A stretch of 38,106 nucleotides of DNA from a virus: positions 1 to 38,106 of the IMG/VR virus record IMGVR_UViG_2660238120_000001; one strand, written 5' to 3'. This document shows, piece by piece, positions 4,516-31,555 of this stretch. Positions within the stretch are counted from its first letter, which is position 1; each line of letters begins with the position of its first letter. Both the position numbers and the translations under genes were made by a program. The notes below the pieces were generated by a model. That model searched no databases and had not been told where the DNA came from. It saw only the letters and a program-made list of their open reading frames with translations.

Positions 4516-6273
4516 TTAAAATTTTACAAATTCATCTGCAGAACCATCTATTAACTTGGCATAGACATATAGGTAACAACCATACTTACCGTATGCACCA
4601 TATGCATTTCCACTCATTAGTCTTAAAGTACCGTTTCCGCTTTGCAAATTGACTCTTGATGAATTTAGTACAGTTGAGCTGGATACGTCACTAGGACTAT
4701 GAGTATTACCATAGTGTTGCCATACAGTTATGCTAGCTACTTTCGTTTTATAAAAGCCTAGAAGAGACTGATTAACTGTATAAGAAATAGATGTTACATC
4801 TTGCGGTTGGTCTGTTTTAAAAGTTAGTAAGCTATCTATCTTAGATGTATCTATCATTTTAATCGAAACTACATTTGATTTTTGGCTTTCTCCTACCGAA
4901 TTGCTTGCAGAAACTTGTGATAGATACGTTTGCCCAATTTCAGCATTAGGAATAGTGCCTGTTAAATTAGTTGTCCTAAAAGTTTGCCAATCCATATCAC
5001 TTTCACGCTTATAGTAGATTGTGTAGTAGTTTAATTTGAGTGGATTACTACTATCATCAGCAGGCGTGATTTGATAGTTTAAACTTCCATTGAAACTTAA
5101 ATTTAGTTGTGGAGCGGATAAAACGTTACCTACAGTAACTGTTTGCATATCAGTAACATTGCTTTCGCCAACCGCATTAAAAGCGATTGCTTTTAGCAAG
5201 TAGGTGTGTCCTAACGTGCAACCATCTATTTTGTAGTTGTTTTCTTTGATATCGTTCCACTTCCAGTTAGCATCGTTCGTGTCTTTAAACATGAGCCTAT
5301 AGTTAGTTACCGGTGTGTCAGCGTTGCTGTCAGCAGTAATAGTGTAGTTTATAGTTTTGCTTGATACATCAACTTTATAGCTTAATTTAACGTTATAAGG
5401 CACTTTTCCTAGTATATATGATTGTGCAGCGCTACCGTCACTCTCATAGCTTTGGTTGACTGCGGTTGCATAGAAATCATATTGATTTCCACCTTGTAAC
5501 TCTAAGCTGCCACTTAGCTGGTGTATATCTACATCAATATGACTATAGTCGGTATCAGTGTGCTTTTTATAATAGAGGACAAATTTTTCAATTTCGGCAC
5601 GTCCAAAATACAGTCCGGGTGTAATTGTGTAATCTACACTTGAGTCATTAGTTTTAATTTCTAGTGATGGTGATTCTGGTTTAGTAGCAATTACAACTTC
5701 CTTTGGTAATTTTGGCATATGATTATCAGTATACTTATTAGCTACTTGTATAGATTTTGCAACATCTTCTTTAGTTGCAAAATTTCTATTAAGATACGCT
5801 ACTGTAACAAAGTTATCTGGATTAATATTTAAGTTTAAATTAGCTTTATCGCCAACTACTACATAGATAATTAAATCAAATTGGTTATACACTTTGTTAG
5901 AGTAATCGTTCATATAGTAAGGACTATCAGCTAAAGTGATTGAATATAGATACTCGGTATCATCCCCGTTAATCTTTGCATATAAACCAACTGCATTGAT
6001 TTTAAAAGCGGTCTTAACATTAGTGTTAGTAAATCTAACTTGTGTACCAGTTGTGCCTTGCTGGTCGGTATCGTCTAATTCATCAACGATACTTCCGTTT
6101 TGAATCTCATTAGGTAATTTAGTCAATGCTGCTAAATTATCATCGTTATAGCTGCTAAAATCAGCATTAGATGCTACAGTTCTGGTAATTGTGAATTGCA
6201 ACTTACCCTTAGCGGCATCGCTGGCTATTGAGCTACCACGCTGTGTTAAAATCGTGTCTTTATAACTAGACAT
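4516..6273 (-). CDS. Tail fibre / receptor-binding protein with three FN3-like repeats
   Basis: The N-terminus (ILTQRGSSIASDAAKGKLQFTITR) resembles fibre N-termini. Three roughly 90-aa repeats each end in ...N.VGES. It follows the baseplate genes. Confidence 0.75.
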   Translation of the reverse strand: MSSYKDTILTQRGSSIASDAAKGKLQFTITRTVASNADFSSYNDDNLAALTKLPNEIQNGSIVDELDDTDQQGTTGTQVRFTNTNVKTAFKINAVGLYAKINGDDTEYLYSITLADSPYYMNDYSNKVYNQFDLIIYVVVGDKANLNLNINPDNFVTVAYLNRNFATKEDVAKSIQVANKYTDNHMPKLPKEVVIATKPESPSLEIKTNDSSVDYTITPGLYFGRAEIEKFVLYYKKHTDTDYSHIDVDIHQLSGSLELQGGNQYDFYATAVNQSYESDGSAAQSYILGKVPYNVKLSYKVDVSSKTINYTITADSNADTPVTNYRLMFKDTNDANWKWNDIKENNYKIDGCTLGHTYLLKAIAFNAVGESNVTDMQTVTVGNVLSAPQLNLSFNGSLNYQITPADDSSNPLKLNYYTIYYKRESDMDWQTFRTTNLTGTIPNAEIGQTYLSQVSASNSVGESQKSNVVSIKMIDTSKIDSLLTFKTDQPQDVTSISYTVNQSLLGFYKTKVASITVWQHYGNTHSPSDVSSSTVLNSSRVNLQSGNGTLRLMSGNAYGAYGKYGCYLYVYAKLIDGSADEFVKF

Positions 6274-6897
6274 TTAATCACTGCCTTTCATTTTTGAAAT
6301 TGCTTTACTTCTTTGGATGTGTTTAGTGCCAATATACATATTTAAATTACTATTATTGATAGTGCTTAGTTTAGGATTAGATATATTTGTAACCATTGAG
6401 ATAGCTTTACTTCCAATGCTTTCATGATGATATGATTTAGCTTTATCTAGTAGAGATATTTGTTTAGCTAATCTAGCTGGTAACATCTTATTCATTAAAT
6501 ATCTTAGCCTGTAAATTTGGTCATCTCTTAAACTGTTAGTGTCATCAATCGCATTAGCTAGTGATTTAACGCTATCTACATCTAAGCGAACTGGAATATT
6601 AAAAGAACTCAATAATTGTTTAAAATATCTAAGTGTAATCGGGTGGGGTGGTAATAACCGTAATAGAATGTTATATCGCCTGGTATCTAAATCCGCATCC
6701 CTATCCACTCTTAAACTATATTCATGCTCTAAAATGCTTAACCCTTGACTATCTGCGGTTTTCACAAATAAATTAGCGAAAATATTATCTACATAATCAG
6801 CTTTATCATCATAAATTGGTTGCTCGGCATTAATAATTACATTCATTTCTACAACATCATCATAATAATCCGGCAAGTTATTCTTTAAATCATTCAT
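6274..6897 (-). CDS. Baseplate protein, XkdU / DUF2313 (P2 gpI-like)
   Basis: N-terminal LPDYY....E...I...E motif and synteny after the baseplate J gene. Confidence 0.7.
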   Translation of the reverse strand: MNDLKNNLPDYYDDVVEMNVIINAEQPIYDDKADYVDNIFANLFVKTADSQGLSILEHEYSLRVDRDADLDTRRYNILLRLLPPHPITLRYFKQLLSSFNIPVRLDVDSVKSLANAIDDTNSLRDDQIYRLRYLMNKMLPARLAKQISLLDKAKSYHHESIGSKAISMVTNISNPKLSTINNSNLNMYIGTKHIQRSKAISKMKGSD

Positions 6898-8059
6898 TGC
6901 TTAAATTCACATCCCTTAAAACTGGTAATTCTGATGTGTCATTATCATATTTAAGGATTAAATCACTATCAGCGCCATTAATCTTTGGAATGCTAGCATT
7001 AATTACATGTTCTACTTTTAATACTTCGGCTAAAATCTGTGAACGATATAAAGTTAAGTGATAGCCGCTATAAGTATCTTTGTCGATAACATCCCACTTA
7101 GTGCTAACTTGTTTCTTAATGTAGCTATTTATAGCATTTTGAATGTTATAGCGTAAATCATTAGGGTTGATATTAATATCATCAGTAGTGATACTCATAT
7201 CTATATCAACGTCTACAACGCTAGGGGCTACTACTGTTACATTGTCCCCTATTGGTGCTAGACCGTAACCGCTGCTAGTTTGATTTACTGGATCAATGGT
7301 TTCTTTAACTTCATTCAGTAGCTCTTTTGAGGCTGCATTATTTGAGTTATCTAAAATAACTAATTTTACAGTTCCCCCACCTTGCCAGGCAGAATAGACT
7401 TGGCCCTTACCGACTGATTTAATATTTTTAAGCATGTCTTGATAATCGGCAATGTTACCACCGTAAGCGGTATAATCATCGCTGGCTAAAATCCTATCCC
7501 TATACACATCATCAGTTTCATCATCCCTAGCTGGTATAGATATTTCAGTTATTTCAGCCCACGAAAGACTATCGTTTGGTGTAACTGGCAATATCTGACC
7601 TATATAACCATTAGGATTAGTTCCAGCTATTTCCGCACTAATTAAACCGGTTAAATCGCTATTTATCTTAATGACGGTATAAAAAATAGGCTCATCTCCT
7701 AAGGAGGCAAACCTATCCCCTACCGCTACATTATTAATTGCTTTTCCGTCTGTATCTAAAAATTTAGCTGTAACCACTGCATTAGTAGCTACATCCCTGG
7801 ATTTACCTTTTTCAAATCCTTTTAGGTCTAAGAACTCGCCCTCGGCACTAATGGTATAAGACTGCTTAATATACTCTGATAATATCAAATTATCTTCGGC
7901 TTGTTGTTGTGCTGCTGGCGCTAGAGCATCATAGATAATTGAACCCTGCCGCTTATCTAAATCATCTGGCACGTTATCTAGCATACTATCCATGTAGTAG
8001 TCAAAATCTCGACTTAATAGGTCATCTATCAAGTCTTGTACAGTAACATAGTTAGCCAC
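6890..8059 (-). CDS. Baseplate J-like protein (XkdT)
   Basis: Size, synteny and J-family look (DKRQGSIIYDALAPAA). Confidence 0.8.
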   Translation of the reverse strand: MANYVTVQDLIDDLLSRDFDYYMDSMLDNVPDDLDKRQGSIIYDALAPAAQQQAEDNLILSEYIKQSYTISAEGEFLDLKGFEKGKSRDVATNAVVTAKFLDTDGKAINNVAVGDRFASLGDEPIFYTVIKINSDLTGLISAEIAGTNPNGYIGQILPVTPNDSLSWAEITEISIPARDDETDDVYRDRILASDDYTAYGGNIADYQDMLKNIKSVGKGQVYSAWQGGGTVKLVILDNSNNAASKELLNEVKETIDPVNQTSSGYGLAPIGDNVTVVAPSVVDVDIDMSITTDDININPNDLRYNIQNAINSYIKKQVSTKWDVIDKDTYSGYHLTLYRSQILAEVLKVEHVINASIPKINGADSDLILKYDNDTSELPVLRDVNLSNE

Positions 8060-8486
8060 TTAGGTTTTCCTCCTTTCTTATGTCGACTGGTCCAAAAATG
8101 GTTTCACAAGTTCCCTCAATCAGAATGCTATCTTTATCAACCTTAGTGATATTGTCGATGTCCGTACTGATAACCCTATCATCAGATAACAAACACTCAT
8201 CTATCATTCTGGCCACTTCTACCTTAATGTATTCAAAGTCTTTGCCTACTAAATCTTGAATGTCATTGCCATAATCTTCATTGTAGATTAACCATACAAA
8301 GCGCTCCGTTTGTAGTGCCTTGTCAATGGCTTGTAGCATGGCATTATATCCATCAGTAAAGCTAATGATACGGTTATTTTTAACTCTATAAGTTTTTGAT
8401 GGTAAGGTTACTTCTTCATAGTCATCCCCTAAATCGTCTTGTAAGCCATCGTCTTGAACTTCTTCAACGCTTTCAGCTGCATCCAC
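8052..8486 (-). CDS. Baseplate wedge protein, XkdS / DUF2634-like
   Basis: Acidic N-terminus, TYRV...RI motif and synteny. Confidence 0.6.
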   Translation of the reverse strand: MDAAESVEEVQDDGLQDDLGDDYEEVTLPSKTYRVKNNRIISFTDGYNAMLQAIDKALQTERFVWLIYNEDYGNDIQDLVGKDFEYIKVEVARMIDECLLSDDRVISTDIDNITKVDKDSILIEGTCETIFGPVDIRKEENLSG

Positions 8487-8840
8487 CTAATCATCTCCTA
8501 ACTTTTCAAATACATAAAATTCCTGGCCTCCATCTTTTCTAATCATTGCAACAGCATCCCCCTCTTCTAAATGCTGTTTAACCATAATCTCAATATCTTT
8601 AGTTTTATCTTCCGGCTTATTTATTATCATTTTGTCGGAATCTTTAACGATACTAATTTTTTCTTTATGGTCAGTTACATTACGCCCTAAAGTTAAAAAA
8701 TCTTCGGTTAAAATTAGTGTGTTACTAACTTCAATTTTTAAAGGACTTTTACTAACTACTTTCCCAAAAACTACATCAGAATATTCACTAGCGTGGCCAC
8801 CACGCTTATTAAATTGTTTTAAAAGGTATTCTCCTGCCAC
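8487..8840 (-). CDS. XkdR-like small baseplate protein
   Basis: Synteny and size only. Confidence 0.5.
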   Translation of the reverse strand: MAGEYLLKQFNKRGGHASEYSDVVFGKVVSKSPLKIEVSNTLILTEDFLTLGRNVTDHKEKISIVKDSDKMIINKPEDKTKDIEIMVKQHLEEGDAVAMIRKDGGQEFYVFEKLGDD

Positions 8841-9811
8841 TATACATTCAACTCCAAATCTACCGTATAATCTCTATCGTTAAAATGGTGTGTGCTTTTA
8901 GTGATTAATAAGGATTTAGTACCTAAGCCCACTTCTTTCAAGCTTTGGCTTTTAATGATGCAAGCATTTCCAGCGACCAAATCGGTATGACCTACTGCGG
9001 TAACTTTCAAAGTGTTCTCTTCCTTACTTTTTTGCTTGAGTAATTGCTTGGCCCTAGCTTTAATCTGTGCCGGATTTGCTTTCTCTTTAGCTTTTTCAAT
9101 ATAAGTTAGTCTACCTAGCTTTTTAATTGAACTCGGCGAACTTTGAGCAGTGGCACTACTACGACCTTTTTTCTTTTTGCTGTCTTTAATGATTCTAACC
9201 ACATTAGCTGTATTTTCTATTGACCTGGATAAGTTAAAACTCTCCATTAGGCTCTTATCCCCTATAACTAGCTTTAACTGCTTGTAAGGAAATTTCCTAA
9301 GCTCTACAACGTTGTAATTAGCGTATAGATAAAAATGTTTATTAGTAGCTCGTTTGGTTTTAGCAATCGCTCCGCTCAACATGTCAAAATAACTTTTATT
9401 ATCGCAAACTTCGGCTTTTAGTTTTTCGCTTGATGTGGCCACCGTTTTAAATTTAACGCCTGCCATTTTTGCTACTTTTTCAAACCTTTGTGAAACGGTA
9501 GAGATAGGCATTACTAAGCTATCTTGATTTTTAAAATAGCGTAAAGCATCGTAAGCAGTAACGCTAAATGTTTCATCGCTACTATATTCATACTTAAATA
9601 CATAGCCATAAAAAATCTTCTTTTTGTTCCACTTTAAGCAAATTACATCCCCATTTCTAATCACAAAGCCCTCTTGCACTTCTAAAAGGTTAAAGGTTAA
9701 AGTCCCTGCTGCAAAGTTAGTAGTAGTTTCCCACTTAACGTTGTAAGCAAGTTCCCTAATGTCCCAAACCTTACTAGAATTTCTTTTTTTACATGTAAAT
9801 GTAGTAATCAT
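8840..9811 (-). CDS. Baseplate hub / late-control-D-like protein (XkdQ-like)
   Basis: Synteny after the tape measure and XkdP-position genes; size about 320 aa. Confidence 0.65.
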   Translation of the reverse strand: MITTFTCKKRNSSKVWDIRELAYNVKWETTTNFAAGTLTFNLLEVQEGFVIRNGDVICLKWNKKKIFYGYVFKYEYSSDETFSVTAYDALRYFKNQDSLVMPISTVSQRFEKVAKMAGVKFKTVATSSEKLKAEVCDNKSYFDMLSGAIAKTKRATNKHFYLYANYNVVELRKFPYKQLKLVIGDKSLMESFNLSRSIENTANVVRIIKDSKKKKGRSSATAQSSPSSIKKLGRLTYIEKAKEKANPAQIKARAKQLLKQKSKEENTLKVTAVGHTDLVAGNACIIKSQSLKEVGLGTKSLLITKSTHHFNDRDYTVDLELNV

Positions 9812-9814
9812 GGT

Positions 9815-10714
9815 TTAACCTCCAAAAGCATTAATCTTAGGAAACTTTGGCAAAGATTTATTATTCTCTTTAGGTTTAGACTTAGGGATGCTATGAGGAG
9901 ATTGAGGGGCTTTAGCGGTCTTATTATTAAAAATATCGGTTGGTTTAATAAATCCAATCGAACCACTAGGTACTTTAATCGGATGTTTATAGTGTGGTTG
10001 ATTTTCTTTTCTAAAAAAATATTGAGGTTGTAAATTATTGTCATGCTTAATCAAGTAAGACTTACTGGCTAATTTTTTCCTCATGGCACTTTTGCCATTC
10101 CCCACTTTTATATTATTGGCCACACTGCCAACACCTGTACCGCCTCGTTTACCAACGATTCTACCAGTAACGTTTTTATGTTTTTTATTATTAATTTTAA
10201 CTTTTGAGCCACGGCTTTTTTTGTGAGATGGCTTTTTCCTGGATTTGCCTTTTTTAGCAACCTTTTTCTTTTTACCAGTAGTTTTGAGCTTTTTAGCTTT
10301 AAACTTCTTAAATTCAGTAAAGGTTAGCGTACAAGCGTACTCTTTGGCATAACCATCTTTAAAACCATATTCAAAGTTGAGTGTGGCCCTTACCGATATA
10401 GAGGTAGTAGTTAAAACTACCCGGCAAGGCTTTTTAGATTTATAGATGTTATTTAGAAAAGAAATATATTTATTACCGTTAGATAAGGTATTTTTAGCAG
10501 TTAAGTAGTGGCAGTGCTTAATATCTATAGGAATAATTACATTGATACTAAAATCAATTAGCTTATTATCCCCAATTCTATTAACTTCTCCCAGCTTAAC
10601 TACAGTTTCCTTTTTGTCATCAGTCGTCTTTTTGATAGTCATCTCTGATGGTGCAACTGGTAATTCTATAGTTTTATTAAGGTGGTTGGTAATATAAACT
10701 CCAGCATTCCGCAT
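9815..10714 (-). CDS. XkdP-position tail protein with an extremely Lys-rich C-terminal half; no LysM seen
   Basis: Synteny only. The sequence KKFKAKKLKTTGKKKKVAKKGKSRKKPSHKKSRGSKVKINNKKHK is low-complexity and basic. Confidence 0.5.
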   Translation of the reverse strand: MRNAGVYITNHLNKTIELPVAPSEMTIKKTTDDKKETVVKLGEVNRIGDNKLIDFSINVIIPIDIKHCHYLTAKNTLSNGNKYISFLNNIYKSKKPCRVVLTTTSISVRATLNFEYGFKDGYAKEYACTLTFTEFKKFKAKKLKTTGKKKKVAKKGKSRKKPSHKKSRGSKVKINNKKHKNVTGRIVGKRGGTGVGSVANNIKVGNGKSAMRKKLASKSYLIKHDNNLQPQYFFRKENQPHYKHPIKVPSGSIGFIKPTDIFNNKTAKAPQSPHSIPKSKPKENNKSLPKFPKINAFGG

Positions 10715-10738
10715 TAATTAGCATCCCCTCACTTATTA

Positions 10739-15393: not shown

Positions 15394-15407
15394 TTAAGCA
15401 GTCCTCC

Positions 15408-22275: not shown

Positions 22276-23653
22276 TGCCTAATTTAAGAGCATTGTCATT
22301 GCTATAGCCATCATCAACTAATTGCTTTTTACGTGCTGCTAATTCTTCTTTCCAATCAGATACAAACGGATTAGCTTTAGCTATGGTTTCATCTGATGAG
22401 AATTGAGCTACTTGATTAAGCGCTTGTGCTTGTTCTAGCGTGTTTTGCACGGTTGCCCTAGTCCATGTTTGAGATATTTTTGCATCGTCATAGTTAGGGA
22501 TGTTCAAAAACTTCAGTATAGCTCTTATAAGCTCATTTAAGCCCTTTTGAAAGTATTGTTGAGTAAGATTGGCTTTCTCTTCTAGTTGGCTCTGTAATTG
22601 CTTAATAGCGGTAGCAGTGGCATTACTTAAAACGACTTTAGATGGATCAACCGATTTAGCCATTAGGAAAATTGACGACCTGGTTATATCTAGCATATCA
22701 TCCCTAGCCTCTCTAGGAATTTCAATGCTTAGAGTATCAACTCCGCCATCATCTTCAAATTTCAAGGCCTTTGTTTCTTTTAAGTCCTTTTTGAAACTTG
22801 CTAAATCTTGGCCACCAAAGTTTTTCAAAACAAAAACGACCTCTTGGATGTCGTCAAGGTCGTTTAAATAGCCATTATATATACTGTCGTAAGCATCAAT
22901 TAGCCCCTTATATTTACTGATTTCGGGCTGTTCATGCAAGTTCTTAGCAAACTTTATAAAAGGGATGCGCCCTAAGTTATGCTCATATACGTTGCTATTA
23001 TCAGTGGTTTCTTCAGTAGTATTGTCAATGTATTTTATTTTATTATAAATCGCTAAACTCTGATAAGTAGCATTACTGCTTTTGCATTTGAAAAATGTAC
23101 AAGTTTTATCATCCCAATACTCGTGTATATCATACAAAGTACCGTCATCATCACGTTGACTATAAGTACGCCTAACAGCAATCATTCCATTTACAAGGCT
23201 TTCATCATAGATTGGTGTTACCTGCTCTGGTGGGACTATAGCATAGTTGAACTTTTTATTTTTACCAACCCAATAATGAACCCAACCAGCACCGGCATTA
23301 CTAGCATCAACAACTAATTTATTTAAAGTTAAGGTTAAATCATCCCCTAGCACTTCATCAACTTGTTTATTAATATTGTCGTTATCGTCAACATCAATCT
23401 GGGGGCGGTTAGACGTTAAATAACTGGCCTCTTGGTCGACAATTAGTTCATGAAAGTTATTAGAAATACGATTATCAGCAGACCTTAGAGCCTCGTTTTT
23501 ACCTTTTTTGTTAATTTTAGAGATTCCGTTATTTCTAAGTGTAATATCATTCTCATTAAGATAATACCTTAGGGATGTAATATTTTGGTCAACCACACGC
23601 TGTCTAGCTGTATCAGTATCATCTAGTATCTGTTTCATCGTTTCTACGTCCAC
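22262..23653 (-). CDS. Portal protein (SPP1 gp6-like)
   Basis: 463 aa directly after terL. Confidence 0.9.
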   Translation of the reverse strand: MDVETMKQILDDTDTARQRVVDQNITSLRYYLNENDITLRNNGISKINKKGKNEALRSADNRISNNFHELIVDQEASYLTSNRPQIDVDDNDNINKQVDEVLGDDLTLTLNKLVVDASNAGAGWVHYWVGKNKKFNYAIVPPEQVTPIYDESLVNGMIAVRRTYSQRDDDGTLYDIHEYWDDKTCTFFKCKSSNATYQSLAIYNKIKYIDNTTEETTDNSNVYEHNLGRIPFIKFAKNLHEQPEISKYKGLIDAYDSIYNGYLNDLDDIQEVVFVLKNFGGQDLASFKKDLKETKALKFEDDGGVDTLSIEIPREARDDMLDITRSSIFLMAKSVDPSKVVLSNATATAIKQLQSQLEEKANLTQQYFQKGLNELIRAILKFLNIPNYDDAKISQTWTRATVQNTLEQAQALNQVAQFSSDETIAKANPFVSDWKEELAARKKQLVDDGYSNDNALKLGNDDE

Positions 23654-24897
23654 GGTACATAGCCACCTTTCTTCATATTTTTCTCTAGTCCATAGCGTGA
23701 GGCATCTAGTGTATGGTCATCGCCATCTGGATAAATTGCTTTAAAATTGCCTTGATTATCTTTCTCATAATGATAACCAGTATATTCACGAGCAGTAGTC
23801 GGACACCTTACTGGATCAATAATAATTGCCCTTAAACCTTGCAACCACTTATAACCTTGATTACGGCTATCTTTACCTTTTTTAGCTTTAAGCAACTTTA
23901 AGCCTAAGCTCCTAAATTCTGCTATAGTTCTAGGCTCGGCACTATCACAAGTTATATAGTCGTTATCCTTGTTTTTAGCTTGTATTTTGCTAACTGCCTC
24001 AGCATTAGATAAACCGACTTTAACCAGTTCATCAAAATAATATAAAACACGTCTAGTTTTATCATAGTGCATAGTTACATAAGCGAGTGGATCACGAGCA
24101 AAACCAAAATCAAGACCACGTTTGATATTATCAAAGCGTTTTAACTCTTCATCGCTAATCTTTCTAAGCGTAACGTTATTAAATACTTCTGCACCTGTTC
24201 CAGTTACTTCCCCTAGATATTCATGCTTATATGACGTTAAATTGTCCTTTTTAAGCTGTTCAGCATCCATTAGGAACTCACGCCCTAGCCATGCTTTAGG
24301 AACTGTTAAATAAGTTGATAGGCTAACCACTGTATCATCCCTTAATTTAGCTCTTTCACTAGCTTTATTAACCCAATTAGTAGGGGATGCTGGGGGGTTG
24401 TATGAGTAAAAAGTACATATATCAGAGCCACCACGGTTAAGTGATTGATTAATCGACCTTATCTCATCTTCGCCTTTAAACTCATCGCATTCTTCAAAGT
24501 GCTTGAACTTAATATAACCGGTTCTAAATTTTTGTGATTTAATCTTTCTAGGATTATCTGCACCTTTAAATCTAATTTTCTGGCCGGTCTTAATATAAGT
24601 TAGCTCTAGTGGGCTATAAGAGGCGTGCCACCAATTACTAACACCTAGCTTGTCAATCGCCCAAATATATTGGTCGAAAACAGAATCACGCAAGGTACTA
24701 GCTACTTTTCTAAGCACCAGGGCGTTAGCTTGCTCATCTTTCATAATTCCTAAAATAATTTCAATCGAAACAAAAGAGGACTTGGTACTACCACGTCCTC
24801 CTTTTAACCAAAAATTAGAGTATTTTTTAGCCTTTATCATGTTATGTAGTCCATAAAATGAGGGGGCTATCATAGTATCAAGGGTTGGCATGGTCAT
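23644..24897 (-). CDS. terL: Terminase large subunit, PBSX family
   Basis: Walker A-like KGGRGSTKS near the N-terminus; size and synteny. Confidence 0.92.
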   Translation of the reverse strand: MTMPTLDTMIAPSFYGLHNMIKAKKYSNFWLKGGRGSTKSSFVSIEIILGIMKDEQANALVLRKVASTLRDSVFDQYIWAIDKLGVSNWWHASYSPLELTYIKTGQKIRFKGADNPRKIKSQKFRTGYIKFKHFEECDEFKGEDEIRSINQSLNRGGSDICTFYSYNPPASPTNWVNKASERAKLRDDTVVSLSTYLTVPKAWLGREFLMDAEQLKKDNLTSYKHEYLGEVTGTGAEVFNNVTLRKISDEELKRFDNIKRGLDFGFARDPLAYVTMHYDKTRRVLYYFDELVKVGLSNAEAVSKIQAKNKDNDYITCDSAEPRTIAEFRSLGLKLLKAKKGKDSRNQGYKWLQGLRAIIIDPVRCPTTAREYTGYHYEKDNQGNFKAIYPDGDDHTLDASRYGLEKNMKKGGYVPWT

Positions 24898-25336
24898 CCT
24901 CCTTTACTGGTGGGATGTTATCAATAATCTCAACGCCTTGTGAGATGTTAGCATTGATTTCCTGCTTATCAGTAAATGCGCCATGAAACTTACCTAACAT
25001 CTCCGCTGCCTTATTTCTATCTTTTAGGGATGGCATGGTTAAAAATGTACCGCCAGCGGTTGCTACTTCGTCATATTCCTCATTGTTCATAACTCTAGTG
25101 TAATACTGCATTACTTCGGTTTCGCTTGCTATATCTGCATCCCTAATCCTTTTAGAATGCTCTTGTATAGCCGTCTGTATATCTTTTCTCTGCAATAGTT
25201 GAGAGGCTTGTACCCTTGCTGTTTTTGTAGAATAACCAGCTAAAACGGCTGCTTTAGTTCCGTTATGAGTTTTGATATAAGCATCAACAAACTTCTCATA
25301 TCTTAATTGTGTAGCTTTAGAAACAATGACTAACAC
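24878..25336 (-). CDS. terS: Terminase small subunit (Terminase_2-like HTH)
   Basis: ATQLRYEKFVDAYIKTHNGTKAAVLAGYSTKTARVQASQLL. The track's GTG start is part of the SD AAGGAGGTG, so the true start is possibly ATT 25325-25327. Confidence 0.85.
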   Translation of the reverse strand: MLVIVSKATQLRYEKFVDAYIKTHNGTKAAVLAGYSTKTARVQASQLLQRKDIQTAIQEHSKRIRDADIASETEVMQYYTRVMNNEEYDEVATAGGTFLTMPSLKDRNKAAEMLGKFHGAFTDKQEINANISQGVEIIDNIPPVKEDDHANP

Positions 25337-25362
25337 CTCCTTTTATATGTATTTTGTACAAA

Positions 25363-25392
25363 AAAAGAACGCAATATAAGCGCTCTTTTTTA
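25363..25392 (-). terminator. Terminator after the 220-aa membrane-anchored cargo gene, just upstream of terS
   Basis: AAAGAACGC, loop, GCGCTCTTT, flanked by an A-run and a T-run. Confidence 0.6.
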
Positions 25393-26052
25393 TTTACCTT
25401 TTTTAGCTTTATCCCACTCTATTTTAGAATATATTGATAAAACTTCTCTCGTTCTGCTAACAATGCTCAATATATCATAATCAAAGTAATCGCTTGAAAT
25501 CATGTCATGATCAGTAGCTAGCATTTCTAGTATATAAATATTTTTATGTTCATTATCATATGGATATCTTAGTAGTTTGCACATTTTTTCAATATACCCA
25601 TTAAAAAAATCGTTTATATTATCAAATCCTAATTCTTGTAAACTAATATCTGACTTTTCAACAATATCCCTAGACATAATATTATTAGTAACCTTAGACG
25701 CTAAAAAACGATATTCTTTTAACTCTTGCAAATATTCAGTGTCGGCTTTACCTTTATGCTTTTTACCAGTCTTTTCAATGTTATTAAAATACATCATTAA
25801 TTTAGTAAGATTATAAATATAATCGTAATACTCTTCAGATTTATAAGGATAAGTACCTTTGCTGCTTTCGAACTTTAAAAGGGACTCTATATATCTAGCA
25901 GTATCTTCTCTTAAATTATTCAGCCAATCAATTCTGGACTTAGACTTAACATCCGAATTAATTTTCGCTCTGTTTAAATAAACGTTAATGATATTAGTGA
26001 TAAATGATGCAATGACAGTACCACTAATTACAGCACCTAAGAAATTATTCAT
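25390..26052 (-). CDS. Hypothetical protein with one N-terminal TM anchor (220 aa), cargo between recombinase and terS
   Basis: N-terminus FLGAVISGTVIASFITNIINVYLNR followed by a helical soluble part. AT-rich. The N-terminal module resembles that of the 33777..34877 product. Confidence 0.75.
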   Translation of the reverse strand: MNNFLGAVISGTVIASFITNIINVYLNRAKINSDVKSKSRIDWLNNLREDTARYIESLLKFESSKGTYPYKSEEYYDYIYNLTKLMMYFNNIEKTGKKHKGKADTEYLQELKEYRFLASKVTNNIMSRDIVEKSDISLQELGFDNINDFFNGYIEKMCKLLRYPYDNEHKNIYILEMLATDHDMISSDYFDYDILSIVSRTREVLSIYSKIEWDKAKKGK

Positions 26053-26064
26053 AACAAATTGCTC

Positions 26065-26988
26065 CTAACCAAAATTAATATCATCAAGCATTTTTTCAGT
26101 GCTTTCTCTATCTAATCCCAAATATTTCAAGGTCATTGCCTGGGATGAATGATTTAGCAAGCTCATAACTAAACTAATATTATAATGTGATTGTACATAT
26201 ACACGATAAGCGCCTGTTTTACGCATAGTGTGCGTACCTAAGTAGTTTATACCTATTAAATCCCCAACACGCTGCATAACTAGATAAAAATTATCTTCAT
26301 CAATATGCTTATCTTGCTCATCTGGGAATAGCCATTTGCTTTTAACACCCCTACCATCCATCCAATCAACATACGCTTTGATTTTGTCTTTTAGCTCTAT
26401 GATACTAATATCTTCATATTTGTTAGTATTCGAGCTTTTAACATGTAGATAGTCTTTTATATGGCTATTATCATCAAGTACGCTAGCCTTAGTGATTTTT
26501 AGAATATCCTTAATGTTTAAAGGCGTACTATCAAGAAAACTAATTATAACGTTATCTTTAGGGCTTTCATCAAACGATGGATTAACCAAAGTTACAGACT
26601 TAATATGCTCTTTCACTTCATCACTTAAATTGAGTTCAGTAATGTGTTTGTCATTTCTGGAACTTGGAAATAGCCATTTTGAATGTATATCATTCTTTAA
26701 TAGCCAATCTCTATACTCTAACAGTTCATTTCTAACTGGCTTTAAATATAAAATGTTAGTCTTACCAGTCTTTTTATCACGAGTATAGGCATCATGCTTA
26801 ATATTGCCTTTATCATCAAAAACATCACTGTATTTAAGTTTTAAAACATCACTAACACGTAAAAGCGTGGCTTTTCCTACTTGAAAAATAGTGAAATTCC
26901 TACGACCAAACTTAAAATTATGTAGTAATGTGTCTTGTACTTGCTTTAGTACGATTGAATCTTTTATTGGATAAACAACGTTTCTCAT
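26065..26988 (-). CDS. Small tyrosine recombinase with an internally duplicated N-terminal half of the catalytic domain
   Basis: SD AGGAG precedes ATG 26988. Catalytic boxes are LLRVSD (Arg I), THTMRKT (H-x-x-R), LNHSS and TLKYLG (Tyr). Segment 26629-26862 is repeated at 26290-26520. Confidence 0.85.
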   Translation of the reverse strand: MRNVVYPIKDSIVLKQVQDTLLHNFKFGRRNFTIFQVGKATLLRVSDVLKLKYSDVFDDKGNIKHDAYTRDKKTGKTNILYLKPVRNELLEYRDWLLKNDIHSKWLFPSSRNDKHITELNLSDEVKEHIKSVTLVNPSFDESPKDNVIISFLDSTPLNIKDILKITKASVLDDNSHIKDYLHVKSSNTNKYEDISIIELKDKIKAYVDWMDGRGVKSKWLFPDEQDKHIDEDNFYLVMQRVGDLIGINYLGTHTMRKTGAYRVYVQSHYNISLVMSLLNHSSQAMTLKYLGLDRESTEKMLDDINFG

Positions 26989-27085
26989 ATAGCTATCTCC
27001 TAACACATAGTATTTTTGTGTTTTACTTAATTATAGTATGTCTTGAAAATAGTATATAATACATTCGCTATTAAATCAACATTCT

Positions 27086-27116
27086 ACACATAGGATAATG
27101 TAATAATCCTATGTGT
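27086..27116. promoter_or_regulatory. 11-9-11 (or 12-7-12) inverted repeat upstream of the recombinase; candidate core recombination site
   Basis: ACACATAGGAT AATGTAATA ATCCTATGTGT. No T-run follows on either strand. Confidence 0.4.
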
Positions 27117-27118
27117 GA

Positions 27119-27244
27119 TTACTTCCTTAAACAAAAATAGTAAATAGCTACAAAAATCAAAATGATAACGGCAGATGACAAAATCATAATCATACTCAAA
27201 TCATTCAATGGCATATTCCACAACTCATCAAAAAGTTGTTTCAT
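27119..27244 (-). CDS. Possible 41-aa membrane peptide
   Basis: MKQLFDELWNMPLNDLSMIMILSSAVIILIFVAIYYFCLRK. ATG 27244 is coupled to the upstream stop. The ORF is below the track cut-off. Confidence 0.4.
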   Translation of the reverse strand: MKQLFDELWNMPLNDLSMIMILSSAVIILIFVAIYYFCLRK

Positions 27245-27248
27245 CTCA

Positions 27249-27521
27249 TCAACCCCTAAATTTTAAAATAGTTGCTAATATTTTATTGTCTGGATCAGCT
27301 ACATCAATTTCAGCACTGGTTTTAGTATAACTATTAACACTAGCTGTATTTAATAGCTGCTTTTTCAAAGCATTAGCAAGTTTAGGGATGTTAAGCGCCT
27401 TGAACACTGATTGCATAATACTTTGAAATAAAGAATTATCAAAAATAATCTCATCTTTAAAAACGCAATCAACCGTTAAAACGCCTTGACCATACCTAAT
27501 ATAGACATTATCTTCACTCAT
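27249..27521 (-). CDS. Hypothetical protein (90 aa)
   Basis: ORF with SD GAGGGA. Confidence 0.65.
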   Translation of the reverse strand: MSEDNVYIRYGQGVLTVDCVFKDEIIFDNSLFQSIMQSVFKALNIPKLANALKKQLLNTASVNSYTKTSAEIDVADPDNKILATILKFRG

Positions 27522-27572
27522 TTTTATCCCTCATTCCGCTATATGTTAAGTTTTGTTAAGTTTTCAATAGAT

Positions 27573-27848
27573 TTAGTTAAAATCTCTGTCGATTAAAACG
27601 TAATTGTTTTTAAATTCATCAGATTTACAACATGTATAATCTAGCATTCCATGTTTAATGACATAGTCGCCTATGGCACACGTATGACTGCCAAACGGAC
27701 TATGTACGGTTAAGTTTCTATTTTCATTAGTGCTAAAGGCTTTTAATTCCATAGAACCAACGTTTTTAATCAAAGTATTGCGGAAACCGTCCCACTTAAA
27801 AGCATTAACAACGTTAGATTTTCGTTTATATAGATTAATTAAAAACAC
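27573..27848 (-). CDS. Hypothetical protein (about 88-91 aa)
   Basis: ORF whose listed GTG lies inside SD AGGAGGTG. An in-frame ATT at 27837-27839 has ideal spacing. Confidence 0.65.
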   Translation of the reverse strand: MFLINLYKRKSNVVNAFKWDGFRNTLIKNVGSMELKAFSTNENRNLTVHSPFGSHTCAIGDYVIKHGMLDYTCCKSDEFKNNYVLIDRDFN

Positions 27849-27921
27849 CTCCTGGTATCATTGTATTTTTTTATTATTTTATTTTTATAAGTTAAAGTAA
27901 GCTGATACATTTTTATGTAAC

Positions 27922-27955
27922 AAAAAAAGGGCTGGTAAACACCAGTCCTTTTTAA
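27922..27955 (-). terminator. Bidirectional-looking rho-independent terminator downstream of the RinA-family gene
   Basis: AAAAAAAGGGCTGGT, AAAC, ACCAGTCCTTTTT. Confidence 0.7.
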
Positions 27956-28109
27956 GAATGTCGATTCAAAATATTTACAATAAGCAAAGTTACAGTAGGA
28001 TTTGTTAATTCACATTAGCAAAAGTTTTCAATTAGCAAATAACTAATCGCTAACTAACACCATACATAATATAACACATAACTACCCCCAATTTTTACCC
28101 AATTTTTAC

Positions 28110-28586
28110 TCAATTATGTTGATGCTTTTTAAGTCGCATTTCTTTCTCGTATTCATCCCGCTCGATTATATGGTGCATCCCCATATACTTCATAATGTCT
28201 TTTAATAGCTTTTTGCGTTGCTTATATAAATTGTTGTTGGCATAGCCATGATTTAAACCAATTCGCCTAAACGATTTATGGTTGTAGTGGTCAAAGTAAT
28301 ACTCTTTTACTACTTCGGCAAACGCTGGCTCACATCTAGCTAGTGCATCTTCTATTGCTGCTTTTTGAAATAAGAATTGTGAGATGAACTTGCTATCTTC
28401 AATTTTGAGTAATAATAGTTCCGCTTTAGCCTCTTTACTACCACTAGCAGTTCCACCTCCCACATTATCATCCCTACCAGCTATGTAAGGGTGTGCAATC
28501 TCTTGACGTTTCCTAGCTATATATCTTGGTATATTTGGATAATCTCTAAGTATGTGTTCCATGAAATTTACAGTATCTTTGTTCAT
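28110..28586 (-). CDS. rinA: Late-gene transcriptional activator, RinA family
   Basis: LRDYPNIPRYI, EIAHPY, GGG, and KEYYFDHYN match the DYPN...EYYF pattern of RinA. It is the last gene of the early operon. Confidence 0.78.
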   Translation of the reverse strand: MNKDTVNFMEHILRDYPNIPRYIARKRQEIAHPYIAGRDDNVGGGTASGSKEAKAELLLLKIEDSKFISQFLFQKAAIEDALARCEPAFAEVVKEYYFDHYNHKSFRRIGLNHGYANNNLYKQRKKLLKDIMKYMGMHHIIERDEYEKEMRLKKHQHN

Positions 28587-28588
28587 TT

Positions 28589-29044
28589 TTAGCCCCCTAC
28601 CTTGATTCTATTTATCTTCTTTACTCTGTACATCTTATAGCGCCCTTGTATTAGTTTGCTACTGGATAGCGCATTGCTTAGTTGCCTATGAGTAAATTCA
28701 ACCCCTAAGTTTTCAAGGGCCTCAGATAAATCTTTAAATCCTTTGAATATTTTTTTATGTCTAGTACAAGTATCTTCAATCACGATATATCTAACCACTA
28801 GCTTATTAACTCGGATTATTCGGCTAACGCTAGTGGGGTTTAAATTCATGTACTTAGCTATGTCTTTAACTCGATAACCTAAATCTAACAATTCAGCAAC
28901 CTTTGCAGTATTTTCATTAACTTCTGCATTTTTAACCATTTCGGCTATTCTTTTAACTCTAGGATCATCACTACTCACATTTTTAAGGCTGCCCTCTTGA
29001 TACTCCAACTGATAAACAGCTTGTAGTATTGGATTGTTCTTCAC
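28589..29044 (-). CDS. HTH DNA-binding protein
   Basis: VKDIAKYMNLNPTSVSRIIRVNKL looks like a helix-turn-helix. Confidence 0.6.
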   Translation of the reverse strand: MKNNPILQAVYQLEYQEGSLKNVSSDDPRVKRIAEMVKNAEVNENTAKVAELLDLGYRVKDIAKYMNLNPTSVSRIIRVNKLVVRYIVIEDTCTRHKKIFKGFKDLSEALENLGVEFTHRQLSNALSSSKLIQGRYKMYRVKKINRIKVGG

Positions 29045-29047
29045 AAC

Positions 29048-29761
29048 TCATCCCCCATTTGTGTATTTTATTGGTTCTCCCATATGCACATCGTATTTTT
29101 GATTTAATCTACCTAAATGCAATCTTTTAGATAGTTCTTTATCAACTCTTACGCCTGTTAAGACGTATTTATCTAAAAAGGTCTTAATACCTATAGTGTG
29201 CTGCATATTATGATGCTCATAGCAAAGTGGTAATACTGTATAGCCAATATGTACCATTTTCTGTCGATTAGCGCCCATCCCAATAGCGTGAACGTGTGCT
29301 ACTTGCATTTTATGGCCACATATACAACATTTTTTATTGTTTAAGCAGTTTATCTCCCAACCGTAACTATCTTTAGCAATATCTAAAGCCTTACTAGCAA
29401 ACTCAACATCCCACTCTAAGCAAATATTAACTAAGTAATCTATAAAGTTATTAGCAATGGTTACAGTGCAGTTACTTAACGAAAACATTTCTTGGTGGTG
29501 TTGTTTACAAAAATTACGCTTTAGTTCTTGCTTAATTGTTTCTAAGTCCATTTGCATGGTTTTAGTTATTGAGTTCAATAGTGCGTATATTTTCCGCTGC
29601 TGCTTATAACTAATAATTCTTTTATCGTCAAAATCCAGCTCTAAATAATTGCCAATATTATTTTTAAATAAATTGGATTCGTGTACATCAATATCATCTA
29701 GTTTTAAAACTATAGTATTTTCTTGATGGTTAAACGCCTTTATTTCGCCAAAGTATTTCAT
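29048..29761 (-). CDS. Putative HNH-type nuclease (Cys/His cluster)
   Basis: CCICGHKMQVAHVHAIGMGANR...LPLCYEHHNMQH. Confidence 0.5.
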   Translation of the reverse strand: MKYFGEIKAFNHQENTIVLKLDDIDVHESNLFKNNIGNYLELDFDDKRIISYKQQRKIYALLNSITKTMQMDLETIKQELKRNFCKQHHQEMFSLSNCTVTIANNFIDYLVNICLEWDVEFASKALDIAKDSYGWEINCLNNKKCCICGHKMQVAHVHAIGMGANRQKMVHIGYTVLPLCYEHHNMQHTIGIKTFLDKYVLTGVRVDKELSKRLHLGRLNQKYDVHMGEPIKYTNGG

Positions 29762-29782
29762 TGCTATAGCTCCTATACTTAG

Positions 29783-29855
29783 TTCAATCGATTTTCAATC
29801 AAATAATGGCCTTTAAATTAACGTTTATATTATTTTTCAATCGATTTTCAATCAA
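29783..29855. repeat. Two perfect 20-bp direct repeats, each made of two TTCAATC units
   Basis: TTCAATCGATTTTCAATCAA occurs at 29783-29802 and 29836-29855, a period of 53 bp, in an intergenic position. Confidence 0.85.
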
Positions 29856-30154
29856 TAATCTTTGATGCTTTCTGCCAATTCATAAACGATTTTCAATATT
29901 CTGTAGTCAATAACGGGATGTTTACTAAAAAAAGTCATCCCATCAGACTGAATCCCAATAAAAACATGTCTATAATCTTTTGTTTTAGCCCACTCAATAT
30001 CAGCAAGATAAATTGTATTTGATACTGTACTTTTGAAAAACTTAACTTGTTCTCCAGCTGTATTACTATATTTAGATAATCTATCATTAGCATTTAAAAT
30101 GGCTTGCTTAACGCTCTCGTTACTCATAATTATTAATTTATTGTTTTTACTCAT
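29852..30154 (-). CDS. Hypothetical early protein (100 aa)
   Basis: ORF in the early operon. Confidence 0.65.
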   Translation of the reverse strand: MSKNNKLIIMSNESVKQAILNANDRLSKYSNTAGEQVKFFKSTVSNTIYLADIEWAKTKDYRHVFIGIQSDGMTFFSKHPVIDYRILKIVYELAESIKDY

Positions 30155-30160
30155 GATTGA

Positions 30161-30406
30161 TTAAACGTCCTCCGCTGGTATTTGATTCTCTACCACATAC
30201 TCAACATAAGCATCTGTATGAGTAGCAAAGCCACCGCCAAATTGCTGGCCATGTTTAGTCAGTAGTTTTATTGCTTGGCTATGGTTCATTTCAAAGGCGT
30301 TTTTAGGGTTGGCATTGGTAAACATTCTATGCTTTTTACAATGCACATAGTTTTTAGTTCTCTGTTCATCATAAAAGTAAACTACAAAATCTTTTTTAAT
30401 AGGCAC
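30161..30406 (-). CDS. Hypothetical early protein (81 aa)
   Basis: ORF in the early operon. Confidence 0.65.
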   Translation of the reverse strand: MPIKKDFVVYFYDEQRTKNYVHCKKHRMFTNANPKNAFEMNHSQAIKLLTKHGQQFGGGFATHTDAYVEYVVENQIPAEDV

Positions 30407-30710
30407 TAACTAAATCCTCCTTAAAATTATCAATTTTTAACAATCTCTGATTAGCACTAGCTATATATAACCTAGAAATCAATTCTCTTAAATCTGGATT
30501 ATCTTTTAGGCTTGATTTATATAAAATCTTAAACAACTTAAAAGCCTCTTGATGATTTAAAACCACTCTGTCTACATAAGGGTTTAAGAACTTATCTAGC
30601 TCTTTAACAGAGTTTTTAGGTCTGATTAGTCTATAAGTATTAAACTCATCATAGAATTGCTTATATCCAAATTCTGATGCTATTAAATGCTTTATATTTT
30701 GTAAGTTCAC
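30396..30710 (-). CDS. Hypothetical early protein (104 aa)
   Basis: GTG start with SD AGGAGGG at 7-nt spacing. Confidence 0.65.
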   Translation of the reverse strand: MNLQNIKHLIASEFGYKQFYDEFNTYRLIRPKNSVKELDKFLNPYVDRVVLNHQEAFKLFKILYKSSLKDNPDLRELISRLYIASANQRLLKIDNFKEDLVSAY

Positions 30711-30739
30711 AAATCATCCCTCCTAACAAAAAATTGTCA

Positions 30740-31555
30740 TTACATATCTTTAAGCTGCTGTTGTAATTCAGCTTTTTTACTTGCATCAATATGTTCTTTA
30801 GGTGGTTTGTAATCATCCCTGGCCCAATTAGGTAAGCTCTCTTTAACAGATTTCTTTTTATTAACTTTTCTATTAGTAATGGTGCTTTTGTTCCTACTGT
30901 TCATATAAGCATCAGCACTCTTAACGTCTGTAACGTTATGTTTTTGCCAATCTTTTAATATTTTTGATAAATACGAAAAGCTGGTTTGTACAGTTACTCC
31001 GTTAGATGCAGCTACATTCACTGCATGATTAAACAAATCTTGGCCATATTCTTTTATTAAATTTATCAGTTTTCGTTTTAAAACTTTGTTCAGTTCTGGC
31101 CATACTGATTTGTAAAATTTCAGTGCGCTTTCTTCCTCTTCTTCTTTATTAAATAATCTATTAGATAATCTTTTATCTTGGACATTTTTGTCGTAAGGTG
31201 TAGACAATTTTGTCGTGGGGTATGGATATGTTCGTCCACACCCCCTAGACATTTTTGTCGATAGGGTAATATATCTTTTTTCTATTTCTTTTGAATCTTT
31301 TTTATAAATTATTTCAACATTTATAAGACCAACATCTCTTAGCTTACTAATGGATCTAGAAACAGACCTAGTAGTTACTTCTACTCCTTCGGCTAATTTT
31401 GCGTTACTCATAAAACAAACATCGACAATATTTAACATGGTATAAATTTGTGAGTAGATAATTTTATCTGTAGAGTTAAGACCTTTACCTGTTAAATTTT
31501 CTATCGGCATTTGGATAAATTTATTTGGAGTTGTAATTTGATTATTTGTGGCCAT
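30740..31555 (-). CDS. Phage replisome organizer / DnaD-like replication initiator
   Basis: N-terminal winged-helix region (AKLAEGVEVTTRSVSRSISKLRDVGLI). C-terminal DnaD-type motif FSYLSKILKDWQKHNVT. Tail LPNWARDDY. Confidence 0.8.
   Translation of the reverse strand: MATNNQITTPNKFIQMPIENLTGKGLNSTDKIIYSQIYTMLNIVDVCFMSNAKLAEGVEVTTRSVSRSISKLRDVGLINVEIIYKKDSKEIEKRYITLSTKMSRGCGRTYPYPTTKLSTPYDKNVQDKRLSNRLFNKEEEEESALKFYKSVWPELNKVLKRKLINLIKEYGQDLFNHAVNVAASNGVTVQTSFSYLSKILKDWQKHNVTDVKSADAYMNSRNKSTITNRKVNKKKSVKESLPNWARDDYKPPKEHIDASKKAELQQQLKDM
31181..31260. repeat. Iteron cluster inside the organizer gene (candidate lytic origin)
   Basis: GACATTTTTGTCG at 31181-31193, GACAATTTTGTCG at 31203-31215 and GACATTTTTGTCG at 31248-31260. 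An inverted repeat GGGGTATGG / CCACACCCC lies between them. Confidence 0.7.

Follow-up and report, generated by a model that had tools for sequence, protein, structure and literature searches.

Among lambdoid phages the abundance of Chi, the recombination signal of the host enzyme RecBCD, follows the phages' own recombination genes: those without a recombinase have a median observed-to-expected ratio (O/E) of 3.1, and where a recombinase comes with a RecBCD inhibitor the median O/E is 0 (Bobay et al. 2013, PMC3784561). In the same work the O/E of Chi in the host was ~2.3, Chi was not concentrated in cargo regions, and P1-like phage-plasmids were among the most enriched (PMC3784561). Zheng et al. 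2025 reported that RecBCD aids growth of the Chi-rich, recombinase-less phage LLS, that the Chi rule extends to Pseudomonas, with its different Chi, and that hybrids arise through module exchange; P1, which has 50 Chi sites in 94.8 kb, requires host RecA and RecBCD to circularise its terminally redundant DNA (PMC12315714). In Firmicutes AddAB/RexAB takes the place of RecBCD and is near-ubiquitous, and Chi varies in size and composition (PMC1193525). Here we describe a stretch of viral DNA (IMG/VR record IMGVR_UViG_2660238120_000001, 38,106 nucleotides, hereafter the window), which is a circular myovirus-type phage-plasmid of Apilactobacillus ozensis and in which GGGATG (CATCCC on the opposite strand) is the most over-represented hexamer. 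We think it probable, if well short of certain, that this word is the Chi-like signal of Apilactobacillus AddAB/RexAB, selected to protect and recombine the ends of headful-packaged DNA. To our knowledge no Chi sequence has been reported for Apilactobacillus or most Lactobacillaceae, and a literature search for GGGATG, alone or with Chi or AddAB, returned nothing relevant; the phenomenon itself is familiar from Chi in P1 and in phages of E. coli and Pseudomonas, and what is new is the candidate Chi sequence and the host group.

An excess of GGGATG in the window

An exact search found 63 copies of GGGATG in the window, which on the + strand read 21 times as GGGATG and 42 times as CATCCC; the outermost lie at 5961-5966 and 30814-30819, and there are none in 1-5960 and 30820-38106 (13.2 kb). 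One hundred dinucleotide-preserving shuffles gave a mean of 6.56 (standard deviation 2.6, maximum 15), and in a ranking of all hexamers of the window GGGATG came first (63 versus 6.4 expected, z = 22), the runner-up having a z of 9.3. Within the block bounded by the outermost copies 5.0 were expected, and the observed density is about one per 395 bp.

5961..30819, no strand: motif-rich block with 63 GGGATG, spanning tail, head, packaging and early lytic genes

These figures bear out a sequence-only reading of the window, which had counted by eye the same 63 copies with their 42/21 split, the same limits (5961-30819) and 22 copies (14 + 8) of an octamer, TAGGGATG/CATCCCTA, and had roughly estimated a 10-fold over-representation of the hexamer and an expectation of fewer than one octamer; every count was reproduced, and the expectations came to 6.4-6.6 hexamers and 0.73 octamers. 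The three copies of CATCCCTAGC that it listed at 7522, 19723 and 22699 and its spellings of Ile-Pro and Arg-Asp codons are also as described. As to the extent of the motif, no flanking position carries information beyond the six bases, so that the unit is the hexamer; a longer motif was rejected because the flanks are uninformative and TAGGGATG is codon context only, and a pentamer or other sub-word was rejected because GGGATH and HGGATG are without enrichment.

The genes of the block run on the - strand, and 42 copies of GGGATG are therefore sense (on the coding strand) and 21 antisense (on the + strand). By position relative to the genes, 25 copies are sense in frame 1, ten are sense in frame 0, three are sense in frame 2, 19 are antisense and six are intergenic; 57 of the 63 are thus intragenic, in either orientation. 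The earlier view that no single peptide motif could account for the word is upheld by this spread over three frames and both orientations.

We measured the excess against synonymous-codon shuffles made within genes, in which every protein sequence and the codon counts were held fixed, and against a second version with pooled codons. The genes of the block contain 57 GGGATG versus 15.4 in the shuffles (maximum 24 of 500 shuffles), or 11.2 with pooled codons, which is an excess of about 3.7-fold over the codon- and protein-preserving expectation, in all frames and on both strands; the genes outside the block contain none versus ~0.7. Similar counts after codon-preserving shuffling, which the sequence-only reading had named as grounds for dropping its claim, were not obtained (57 versus 15.4). 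The same picture is seen in the positions at which a synonymous change could create the word: in the block 37 of 58 such opportunities are used for sense GGGATG and 19 of 55 for CATCCC, compared with 0 of 19 in the genes outside it, and in the frame xGG GAT Gxx 25 of 32 sense opportunities are taken. Use of sense opportunities is at 58-78% all along the block, and the sites are spaced more evenly than at random (coefficient of variation 0.77 versus 0.98; largest gap 1243 versus 1888 bp; each p ~0.02). The synonymous shuffles and the spread over frames led us to reject codon usage, dipeptides or a peptide motif as the cause, and a repair-driven bias of the very-short-patch kind was rejected since the one-mismatch neighbours show no consistent depletion (AGGATG: 3 versus 9.2 expected in the window, 15 versus 16.1 in the related element L031, described below). 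The excess of GGGATG is real and strong.

GGGATG in other Apilactobacillus elements

One enriched relative is plasmid p2 of A. apisilvae (L031), a distantly related phage-plasmid syntenic with the window, whose top hexamer is also GGGATG (38 versus 8.6 expected; 35 versus 10.2 by synonymous shuffles). Its copies lie in the same modules as those of the window, and its fibre-to-immunity zone is nearly empty of them. The structural proteins of the two elements are 32-58% identical, mostly 44-58%, no closer than those of relatives that lack the motif, and only 7 of 19 alignable sites coincide, the other 12 differing in position. The packaging and early modules are closer, as follows.

24878..25336, - strand: terminase small subunit gene, terS (Pfam Terminase_2, 5.8e-26); product 69% identical to that of L031
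23644..24897, - strand: terminase large subunit (PHROG terminase large subunit, 3e-49); 81% identical to that of L031 over 279 amino acids
26065..27006, - strand: tyrosine recombinase (Phage_integrase, 3.8e-20; PHROG 216); 71% identical to that of L031
29048-29761, - strand: HNHc_6 nuclease of the early lytic region; 74% identical to that of L031

Even in terS, where the window has three GGGATG within 459 bp and L031 also has three, the copies are at other positions. At the divergence of the structural proteins synonymous positions are saturated, so both the excess and the absence of the word would have to be kept by ongoing selection, and on this comparison of sequences the excess is maintained by selection and not by descent. 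Shared ancestry with L031 was accordingly rejected as its cause from the protein identities and the turnover of sites, and the suggestion in the sequence-only reading that the word might be a lineage signature of the block is contradicted, at least as a passive signature, by a relative that is no closer than motif-free ones and shares 7 of 19 sites.

Across Apilactobacillus mobile DNA GGGATG is bimodal, being either strongly enriched or at zero. It is enriched 4-12 fold in the window, in L031 and in L129, and there are no copies in the second phage-plasmid of the same A. apisilvae strain (L032), with which L031 cohabits its cell, in the A. kunkeei phage-plasmids L034, L035 and L117, or in the A. 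kunkeei plasmid pLPX (L116). For those five replicons the expectation was 28.6 by synonymous shuffles, 33-36 under low-order Markov models and 10.8 at order 4 (12.7 if the two motif-free zones are included), and in L032, L034 and L117 not one of 292 synonymous opportunities is used. The pentamer GGATG is not avoided in L116 and L117, so the excluded word is the hexamer. Among 98 more distant relatives none has a GGGATG excess above 2.2-fold. A related phage-plasmid from outside the genus, on Lentilactobacillus buchneri plasmid NZ_CP043616, has 21 copies versus 9.7 by synonymous shuffles (sense CATCCC 11 versus 2.8), despite an annotated AAA-family ATPase (possibly of Sak4 type, by annotation) and a DUF669 protein.

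The third enriched element is not a phage. It is represented by A. timberlakei contigs QUAQ01000006 and QUAP01000006 (L129 and L130), which have 16 GGGATG in 20 kb versus 2.7 expected, eight per strand, with 10 inside genes versus 1.05 expected. Positions 1-20138 of L129 have a G+C content of 27% and encode a DUF87 ATPase, a lysozyme/M23 peptidase, an integrase and a dUTPase, and the element is probably conjugative. That an unrelated, non-phage element is enriched suggests that the factor behind the word belongs to the host and is not a phage enzyme.

We compared this distribution with the recombination genes of the elements. The relevant part of the window is its early lytic region, which besides the HNHc_6 nuclease includes the following.

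27249..31555, - strand: early lytic region with loader, nuclease, late activator and small open reading frames (ORFs)
30740-31555, - strand: DnaD-like helicase loader
28110-28586, - strand: ArpU-type late activator

In this region no single-stranded DNA-annealing recombinase, single-stranded DNA-binding protein (SSB) or Gam-like gene was detected; the equivalent region of L031 is likewise without a recombination module, and neither element has a detectable recombinase of that kind, SSB or end-protection gene. By comparison L034 encodes a Sak4-like annealing protein, an SSB and a Mu Gam-like end-protection protein, L117 a Sak-like protein and an annotated ssb gene, and L032 an Erf; L035, with its 0 copies, is a near relative of L034, in which rather than in L035 the recombination genes were scanned. 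For L134, an A. xinyiensis phage-plasmid with RecT and a DUF3799 protein, zero copies were predicted before counting and 0 were found versus 2.3 expected. In this small number of elements, gene content thus appears to split them as the motif does, those without a recombination module being the enriched ones.

More relatives were sought with little return. Searches of IMG/VR and JGI metagenomes with the portal, HNHc_6 and large terminase proteins found no relative closer than 49%, a search of the genome collection found distant prophages only, none with a GGGATG excess, and the portal protein sequence had no exact match on record; a search with a plasmid LPxTG protein, aimed at the A. kunkeei chromosome, matched only mucin-binding proteins of other genera.

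Gene map and the zones without GGGATG

The assignment of the window rests on several of its features. Apilactobacillus ozensis DSM 23829 has a protein identical to the lysin of the window. Positions 1-56 are identical to 38051-38106, an assembly overlap of 56 bp that leaves a circular replicon of 38,050 bp, and with the overlap removed an ORF of 309 amino acids runs across the junction, from 37622 to 501 (+ strand), which the linear window splits. This putative initiator has weak, sub-threshold matches to RepA_N and Bac_RepA_C together with a MarR-type helix-turn-helix, an architecture also found in the initiators of its relatives. From the end overlap, the junction-spanning RepA-like ORF and ParA we took the window to be a circular plasmid, and since it also encodes a full myovirus virion, both terminase subunits, a lysis cassette, cI/cro-like regulators, the DnaD-like helicase loader, the HNHc_6 nuclease and the tyrosine recombinase, we regard it as a phage-plasmid. 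Phage-plasmids of this kind are known from A. kunkeei (PMC9648514).

The motif-free DNA of the circle falls into two parts in the linear window.

30820..38106, no strand: motif-free zone, part 1; the greater part of the DnaD-like gene, cro/cI, cargo, type I toxin and ParA (36347-37201), with the beginning of the RepA_N-like initiator (37622 onward)
1..5960, no strand: motif-free zone, part 2; remainder of the RepA-like gene, DUF6414 cargo gene, GH25 lysin, holins and the distal part of fibre gene 4516-6273

The toxin is a 28-residue ORF at 35136-35222 (+ strand), MSVFQALSLMFMFGMFILALLTYISNHK, that resembles Hol_Tox type I toxins of Apilactobacillus chromosomes and plasmids; the toxin of L031 has an identical copy on the A. 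apisilvae chromosome.

Synonymous opportunities for GGGATG are used in 0 of 15 cases in 30820..38106 and in 0 of 9 in 1..5960, and the two borders lie within genes, which the sequence-only reading took as a sign of module exchange. Other words tell the parts of these zones apart. The block avoids restriction-type words, with 1 CCTTC versus 32 expected, 1 GAAGC versus 40 and 11 GATC versus 45; CCTTC and GAAGC are not avoided in relatives from other species. The stretch from 30820 through the junction to 2199 is weakly purged of these words (CCTTC 5 versus 7.7, GAAGC 6 versus 9.7, GATC 10 versus 20), and its ParA shares 76% identity with the ParA of L032, which lacks the motif; both observations fit a different, and probably more recent, history for this stretch, which holds the loader, immunity, cargo, partition and RepA genes. 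The lysis and distal-fibre stretch 2200-5960 is purged like the block (GATC 1 versus 6.7, CCTTC 0 versus 3.3, GAAGC 0 versus 5.1) yet is without GGGATG, and the same pattern, purged yet GGGATG-free, holds for the lysis/distal-fibre segment of L031. This suggests either that selection is limited by position or that the segment was exchanged with phages of the same host that lack the motif, so that module exchange at the borders is possible and is not the sole reading, as the purging of 2200-5960 fits a positional requirement as well.

From terS the block reaches ~5.7 kb in the upstream and ~19 kb in the downstream direction, and downstream the use of antisense opportunities declines with distance from the gene, from 8 of 17 through 4 of 10 and 3 of 10 to 1 of 8 in the window and from 4 of 13 to 0 of 8 and 0 of 11 in L031. 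In L031 antisense use is 6 of 21 near terS versus 0 of 19 far from it, a comparison in which the position of the packaging site pac and the direction of packaging are assumed. Antisense sites would be in the orientation read by an enzyme entering at the pac end, and we infer that they are costlier in codon terms than sense sites. A strand switch oriented by replication, opposite the plasmid origin, was rejected, as the ratios of 23:8 and 19:13 on its two sides show no flip.

The tyrosine recombinase gene lies ~0.7 kb upstream of the packaging genes, as it does in L031; it is absent from L032-L035, being common among the compared loci only to the window and L031, and may have a role in circularisation or in the resolution of multimers. 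The arrangement recalls the cre/lox-pac neighbourhood of P1, where a recombinase gene is also near the packaging site.

Two other words stood out. The palindrome TGGCCA is a second over-represented word of the window (23 versus 5.8 by synonymous shuffles, maximum 12), at the following positions.

3714, 8210, 8794, 9436, 10117, 12038, 12579, 12895, 13705, 15125, 17505, 18270: TGGCCA sites
19569, 19989, 20711, 21471, 21948, 22809, 29313, 30246, 31041, 31097, 31549: TGGCCA sites, continued

It is enriched regardless of recombination genes in L031 (26 versus 7.6), L117 (31 versus 6.4) and L034 (13 versus 5.3), shows no enrichment in L032, and is rare in chromosome samples (0-1 versus 2-4). The pentamer GGATG, which we take to be a FokI-type site, is strongly avoided in L034 (7 versus 40), L035 (3 versus 41.5), L118 (2 versus 11.5) and L032 (17 versus 45), with no avoidance in L116, L117, L134 or the window, which suggests a separate, strain-specific restriction system.

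A candidate Chi signal and its alternatives

Among the meanings that the sequence-only reading had offered, a Chi-like attenuator of AddAB/RexAB is the one we favour: the word is enriched in elements without a recombination module and absent from related ones that have it, is present and in mild excess in the host chromosome samples, and lies around and downstream of the terminase genes. To judge from the type of terminase, annotated as PBSX-family in relatives, the element would be packaged by the headful from a pac site, giving linear, circularly permuted, terminally redundant virion DNA with ends at pac and at successive positions downstream. Host AddAB would load at the injected ends and at free ends of concatemers and would degrade the DNA until it met 5'-GGGATG-3' from the 3' side, where it would switch to producing a RecA-loaded 3' tail. 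The switch would spare the genome and would drive host-dependent recombination, both for circularisation via the terminal redundancy and for the formation of concatemers. A site would be needed within the short redundant segment at either end, and this need would account for the high density, the even spacing, the use of both orientations and the confinement around terS, with many sites where ends fall and none far off. Elements with their own recombinase and end-protection proteins would have no need of the signal and would be selected to lack it; the window most likely carries the candidate Chi at near-saturating density for want of its own recombinase and nuclease inhibitor.

The window resembles Chi-rich, recombinase-less phages. 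In E. coli phage LLS, in ~70 other lambdoid phages and in Pseudomonas phage MD8 the top word is likewise short, asymmetric and G-rich, is found only where a recombinase and nuclease inhibitor are missing, with relatives that have these genes lacking the word, and has an uneven distribution over the genome that leaves out cargo regions (PMC12315714; PMC3784561). The composition-aware excess is about 3.5-fold here, compared with their median of 3.1. The window differs from those phages in its host, a Gram-positive member of the Lactobacillaceae presumed to have AddAB/RexAB instead of RecBCD, in its density of one site per 395 bp compared with one per 1.9 kb, in using both orientations (2:1) where cos phages use a single one nearly exclusively, and in being a headful-packaged plasmid-prophage with a 6-mer word. 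P1 is closer in lifestyle, being a non-integrating plasmid prophage without an annealing-type recombinase in which Chi is the top word; it is packaged by the headful from pac and has its site-specific tyrosine recombinase gene near the packaging site, an arrangement that the window also seems to have. P1 has unrelated virion and replication modules and a different host, and in the window GGGATG is confined to about two thirds of the genome; the window may depend on host recombination. The known Chi sites of AddAB/RexAB enzymes are AGCGG in B. subtilis, GCGCGTG in L. lactis and GAAGCGG in S. aureus, and GGGATG resembles them in being short (5-7 nucleotides), G-rich and non-palindromic, as would be expected of a word read on one strand by AddB. 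Its frequency in the hosts, about one per 2-5 kb, is within the range of other Chi sites.

That frequency comes from 20-kb chromosomal stretches around a small toxin gene in A. apisilvae (CP093362), A. micheneri and A. timberlakei, which contain 4-9 GGGATG per 20 kb (0.2-0.45 per kb), or 1.2-1.8 times the Markov expectation (20 versus 10.4 by synonymous shuffles). The sites are mostly on the G-rich strand (5:1, 4:0, 7:2 and 4:1, about 20:4). The hosts do not avoid GGGATG and may mildly favour it. The sequence-only reading had proposed the same count, with strand skew, in the host and in related phages; L031 and the non-phage L129 show enrichment, the five replicons with zero copies do not, and in the chromosome samples the enrichment is 1.2-1.8-fold and the skew is confounded.

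Several points weigh against a Chi function. The host enrichment is modest, the sample behind it is one syntenic, accessory-rich region in three species other than A. ozensis, whose loci are non-independent, and its strand bias cannot be told apart from an effect of gene orientation, as the codon-aware expectation is already ~4:1 to sense. A simple model of entry at the ends predicts that orientation should flip between the edges of the block, and there is no flip, sense sites prevailing at both. The pac site, at which headful packaging would start, is presumed to be in or near terS, and its position and the direction of packaging are both assumed. The small unannotated ORFs of the early lytic region could conceal an unrecognised inhibitor or recombinase. 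GGGATG is without the GCG core of the Firmicutes AddAB Chi sequences listed above. Two non-phage plasmids, L116 and L132, are also without GGGATG, which the Chi rule does not directly predict. Lastly, the A. timberlakei phage-plasmid L119, which has a Gam-like gene and a helicase, is an exception, with 4 GGGATG versus 3.8 expected; the copies, at 2998, 4084, 6597 and 6915, are all sense and all fall in 4 kb of tail genes, the remaining 17 kb having none, and the element looks like a hybrid of motif-rich and motif-free modules.

Of the other explanations, an unlikely one is that GGGATG is the site of a restriction-modification or defence system widespread in Apilactobacillus, and that the enriched elements live in modifying hosts and benefit from modified sites through enzyme titration or a block to nucleases. 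Full absence from several phage-plasmids and plasmids together with a normal chromosomal frequency is what would be expected of a host-methylated target; these phages do avoid other words (GATC; GGATG in L034, L035 and L118; CCTTC and GAAGC in the window), and Type IIS and Type III sites are, like this word, short and asymmetric. The resemblance to restriction-site avoidance ends with the tenfold gain in other elements of the same hosts, since no known restriction logic favours such a gain of targets, to 64% saturation of synonymous opportunities. No methyltransferase was found among the proteins encoded by the window, nor was any restriction gene found there or either kind annotated in L031, and the suggestion of the sequence-only reading that the word is a target of DNA modification is for these reasons unsupported. 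The absence, 0 of 28.6, is also more complete than that of words which the same genomes clearly avoid in a restriction-type manner (ratios 0.02-0.6), and that presence and absence follow the recombination genes is unpredicted by a restriction model. We give a similarly small chance to the idea that GGGATG is the mark of an undescribed, genus-wide self/non-self system of Apilactobacillus other than Chi, whose target word most elements would have to avoid altogether and a few (the window, L031 and the conjugative-like element of A. timberlakei) would exploit by saturation, for example as a decoy or as a platform for protective modification by the host.

Slightly less probable still is that an element-encoded protein, such as the small terminase subunit, the HNHc_6 nuclease or the tyrosine recombinase, binds or cuts at GGGATG, and that the site serves packaging, recombination-dependent replication or the silencing of lytic genes. 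Among the compared loci only the window and L031 share close versions of both terminase subunits, HNHc_6 and the recombinase; in both the motif is limited to lytic modules and missing from maintenance and immunity genes, and each terS gene has its three copies. Such a role is hard to square with the sixfold enrichment in the unrelated, non-phage L129, in which Pfam and PHROG detected no terminase or HNHc_6 over 20 kb, a point qualified by the fact that the L129 integrase belongs to PHROG 216, the family of the window's recombinase. It would also leave active avoidance elsewhere and chromosomal presence unexplained. HNHc_6 was rejected as the actor because L032 encodes a homologue yet is free of sites, and because L129 is enriched without being a phage; Pfam gave no detectable link of HNHc_6 to NinG/Rap. 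An intragenic hexamer at one per 400 bp is unlike the known dispersed operators or stoperators, which are 13-17 bp long and intergenic; dispersed repressor sites of the stoperator or P1 C1-operator type, which occur in tens of copies, mostly between genes and in one orientation, were rejected, given six informative bases and 57 of 63 sites within genes in both orientations. A functionless compositional or ancestral signature, left by a donor lineage, by codon or dipeptide usage or by mutational bias, is very improbable: the block does exceed its flanks in G+C (0.35 versus 0.29) and in G+C at third codon positions (0.29 versus 0.22), and the top hexamers of the 98 distant relatives often reach z ~10 under the dinucleotide model, but protein- and codon-preserving shuffles never came near the observed count, all 98 relatives are at or below 2.2-fold for GGGATG, sites turn over between the window and L031 at saturating structural-gene divergence, and one-mismatch neighbours are without consistent depletion.

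If GGGATG is indeed the Chi of Apilactobacillus AddAB/RexAB, the comparison of a few mobile elements would have yielded the sequence that regulates the main enzyme by which the host repairs double-strand breaks, and the rule of no recombination module, many Chi sites would reach a Gram-positive AddAB host and phage-plasmids. The all-or-nothing distribution of the word would provide a simple sequence test for phages dependent on host recombination. Adding or removing GGGATG could alter the survival of linear or rolling-circle DNA and the efficiency of recombineering in engineered bee-associated lactobacilli, and possibly the acquisition of CRISPR spacers.

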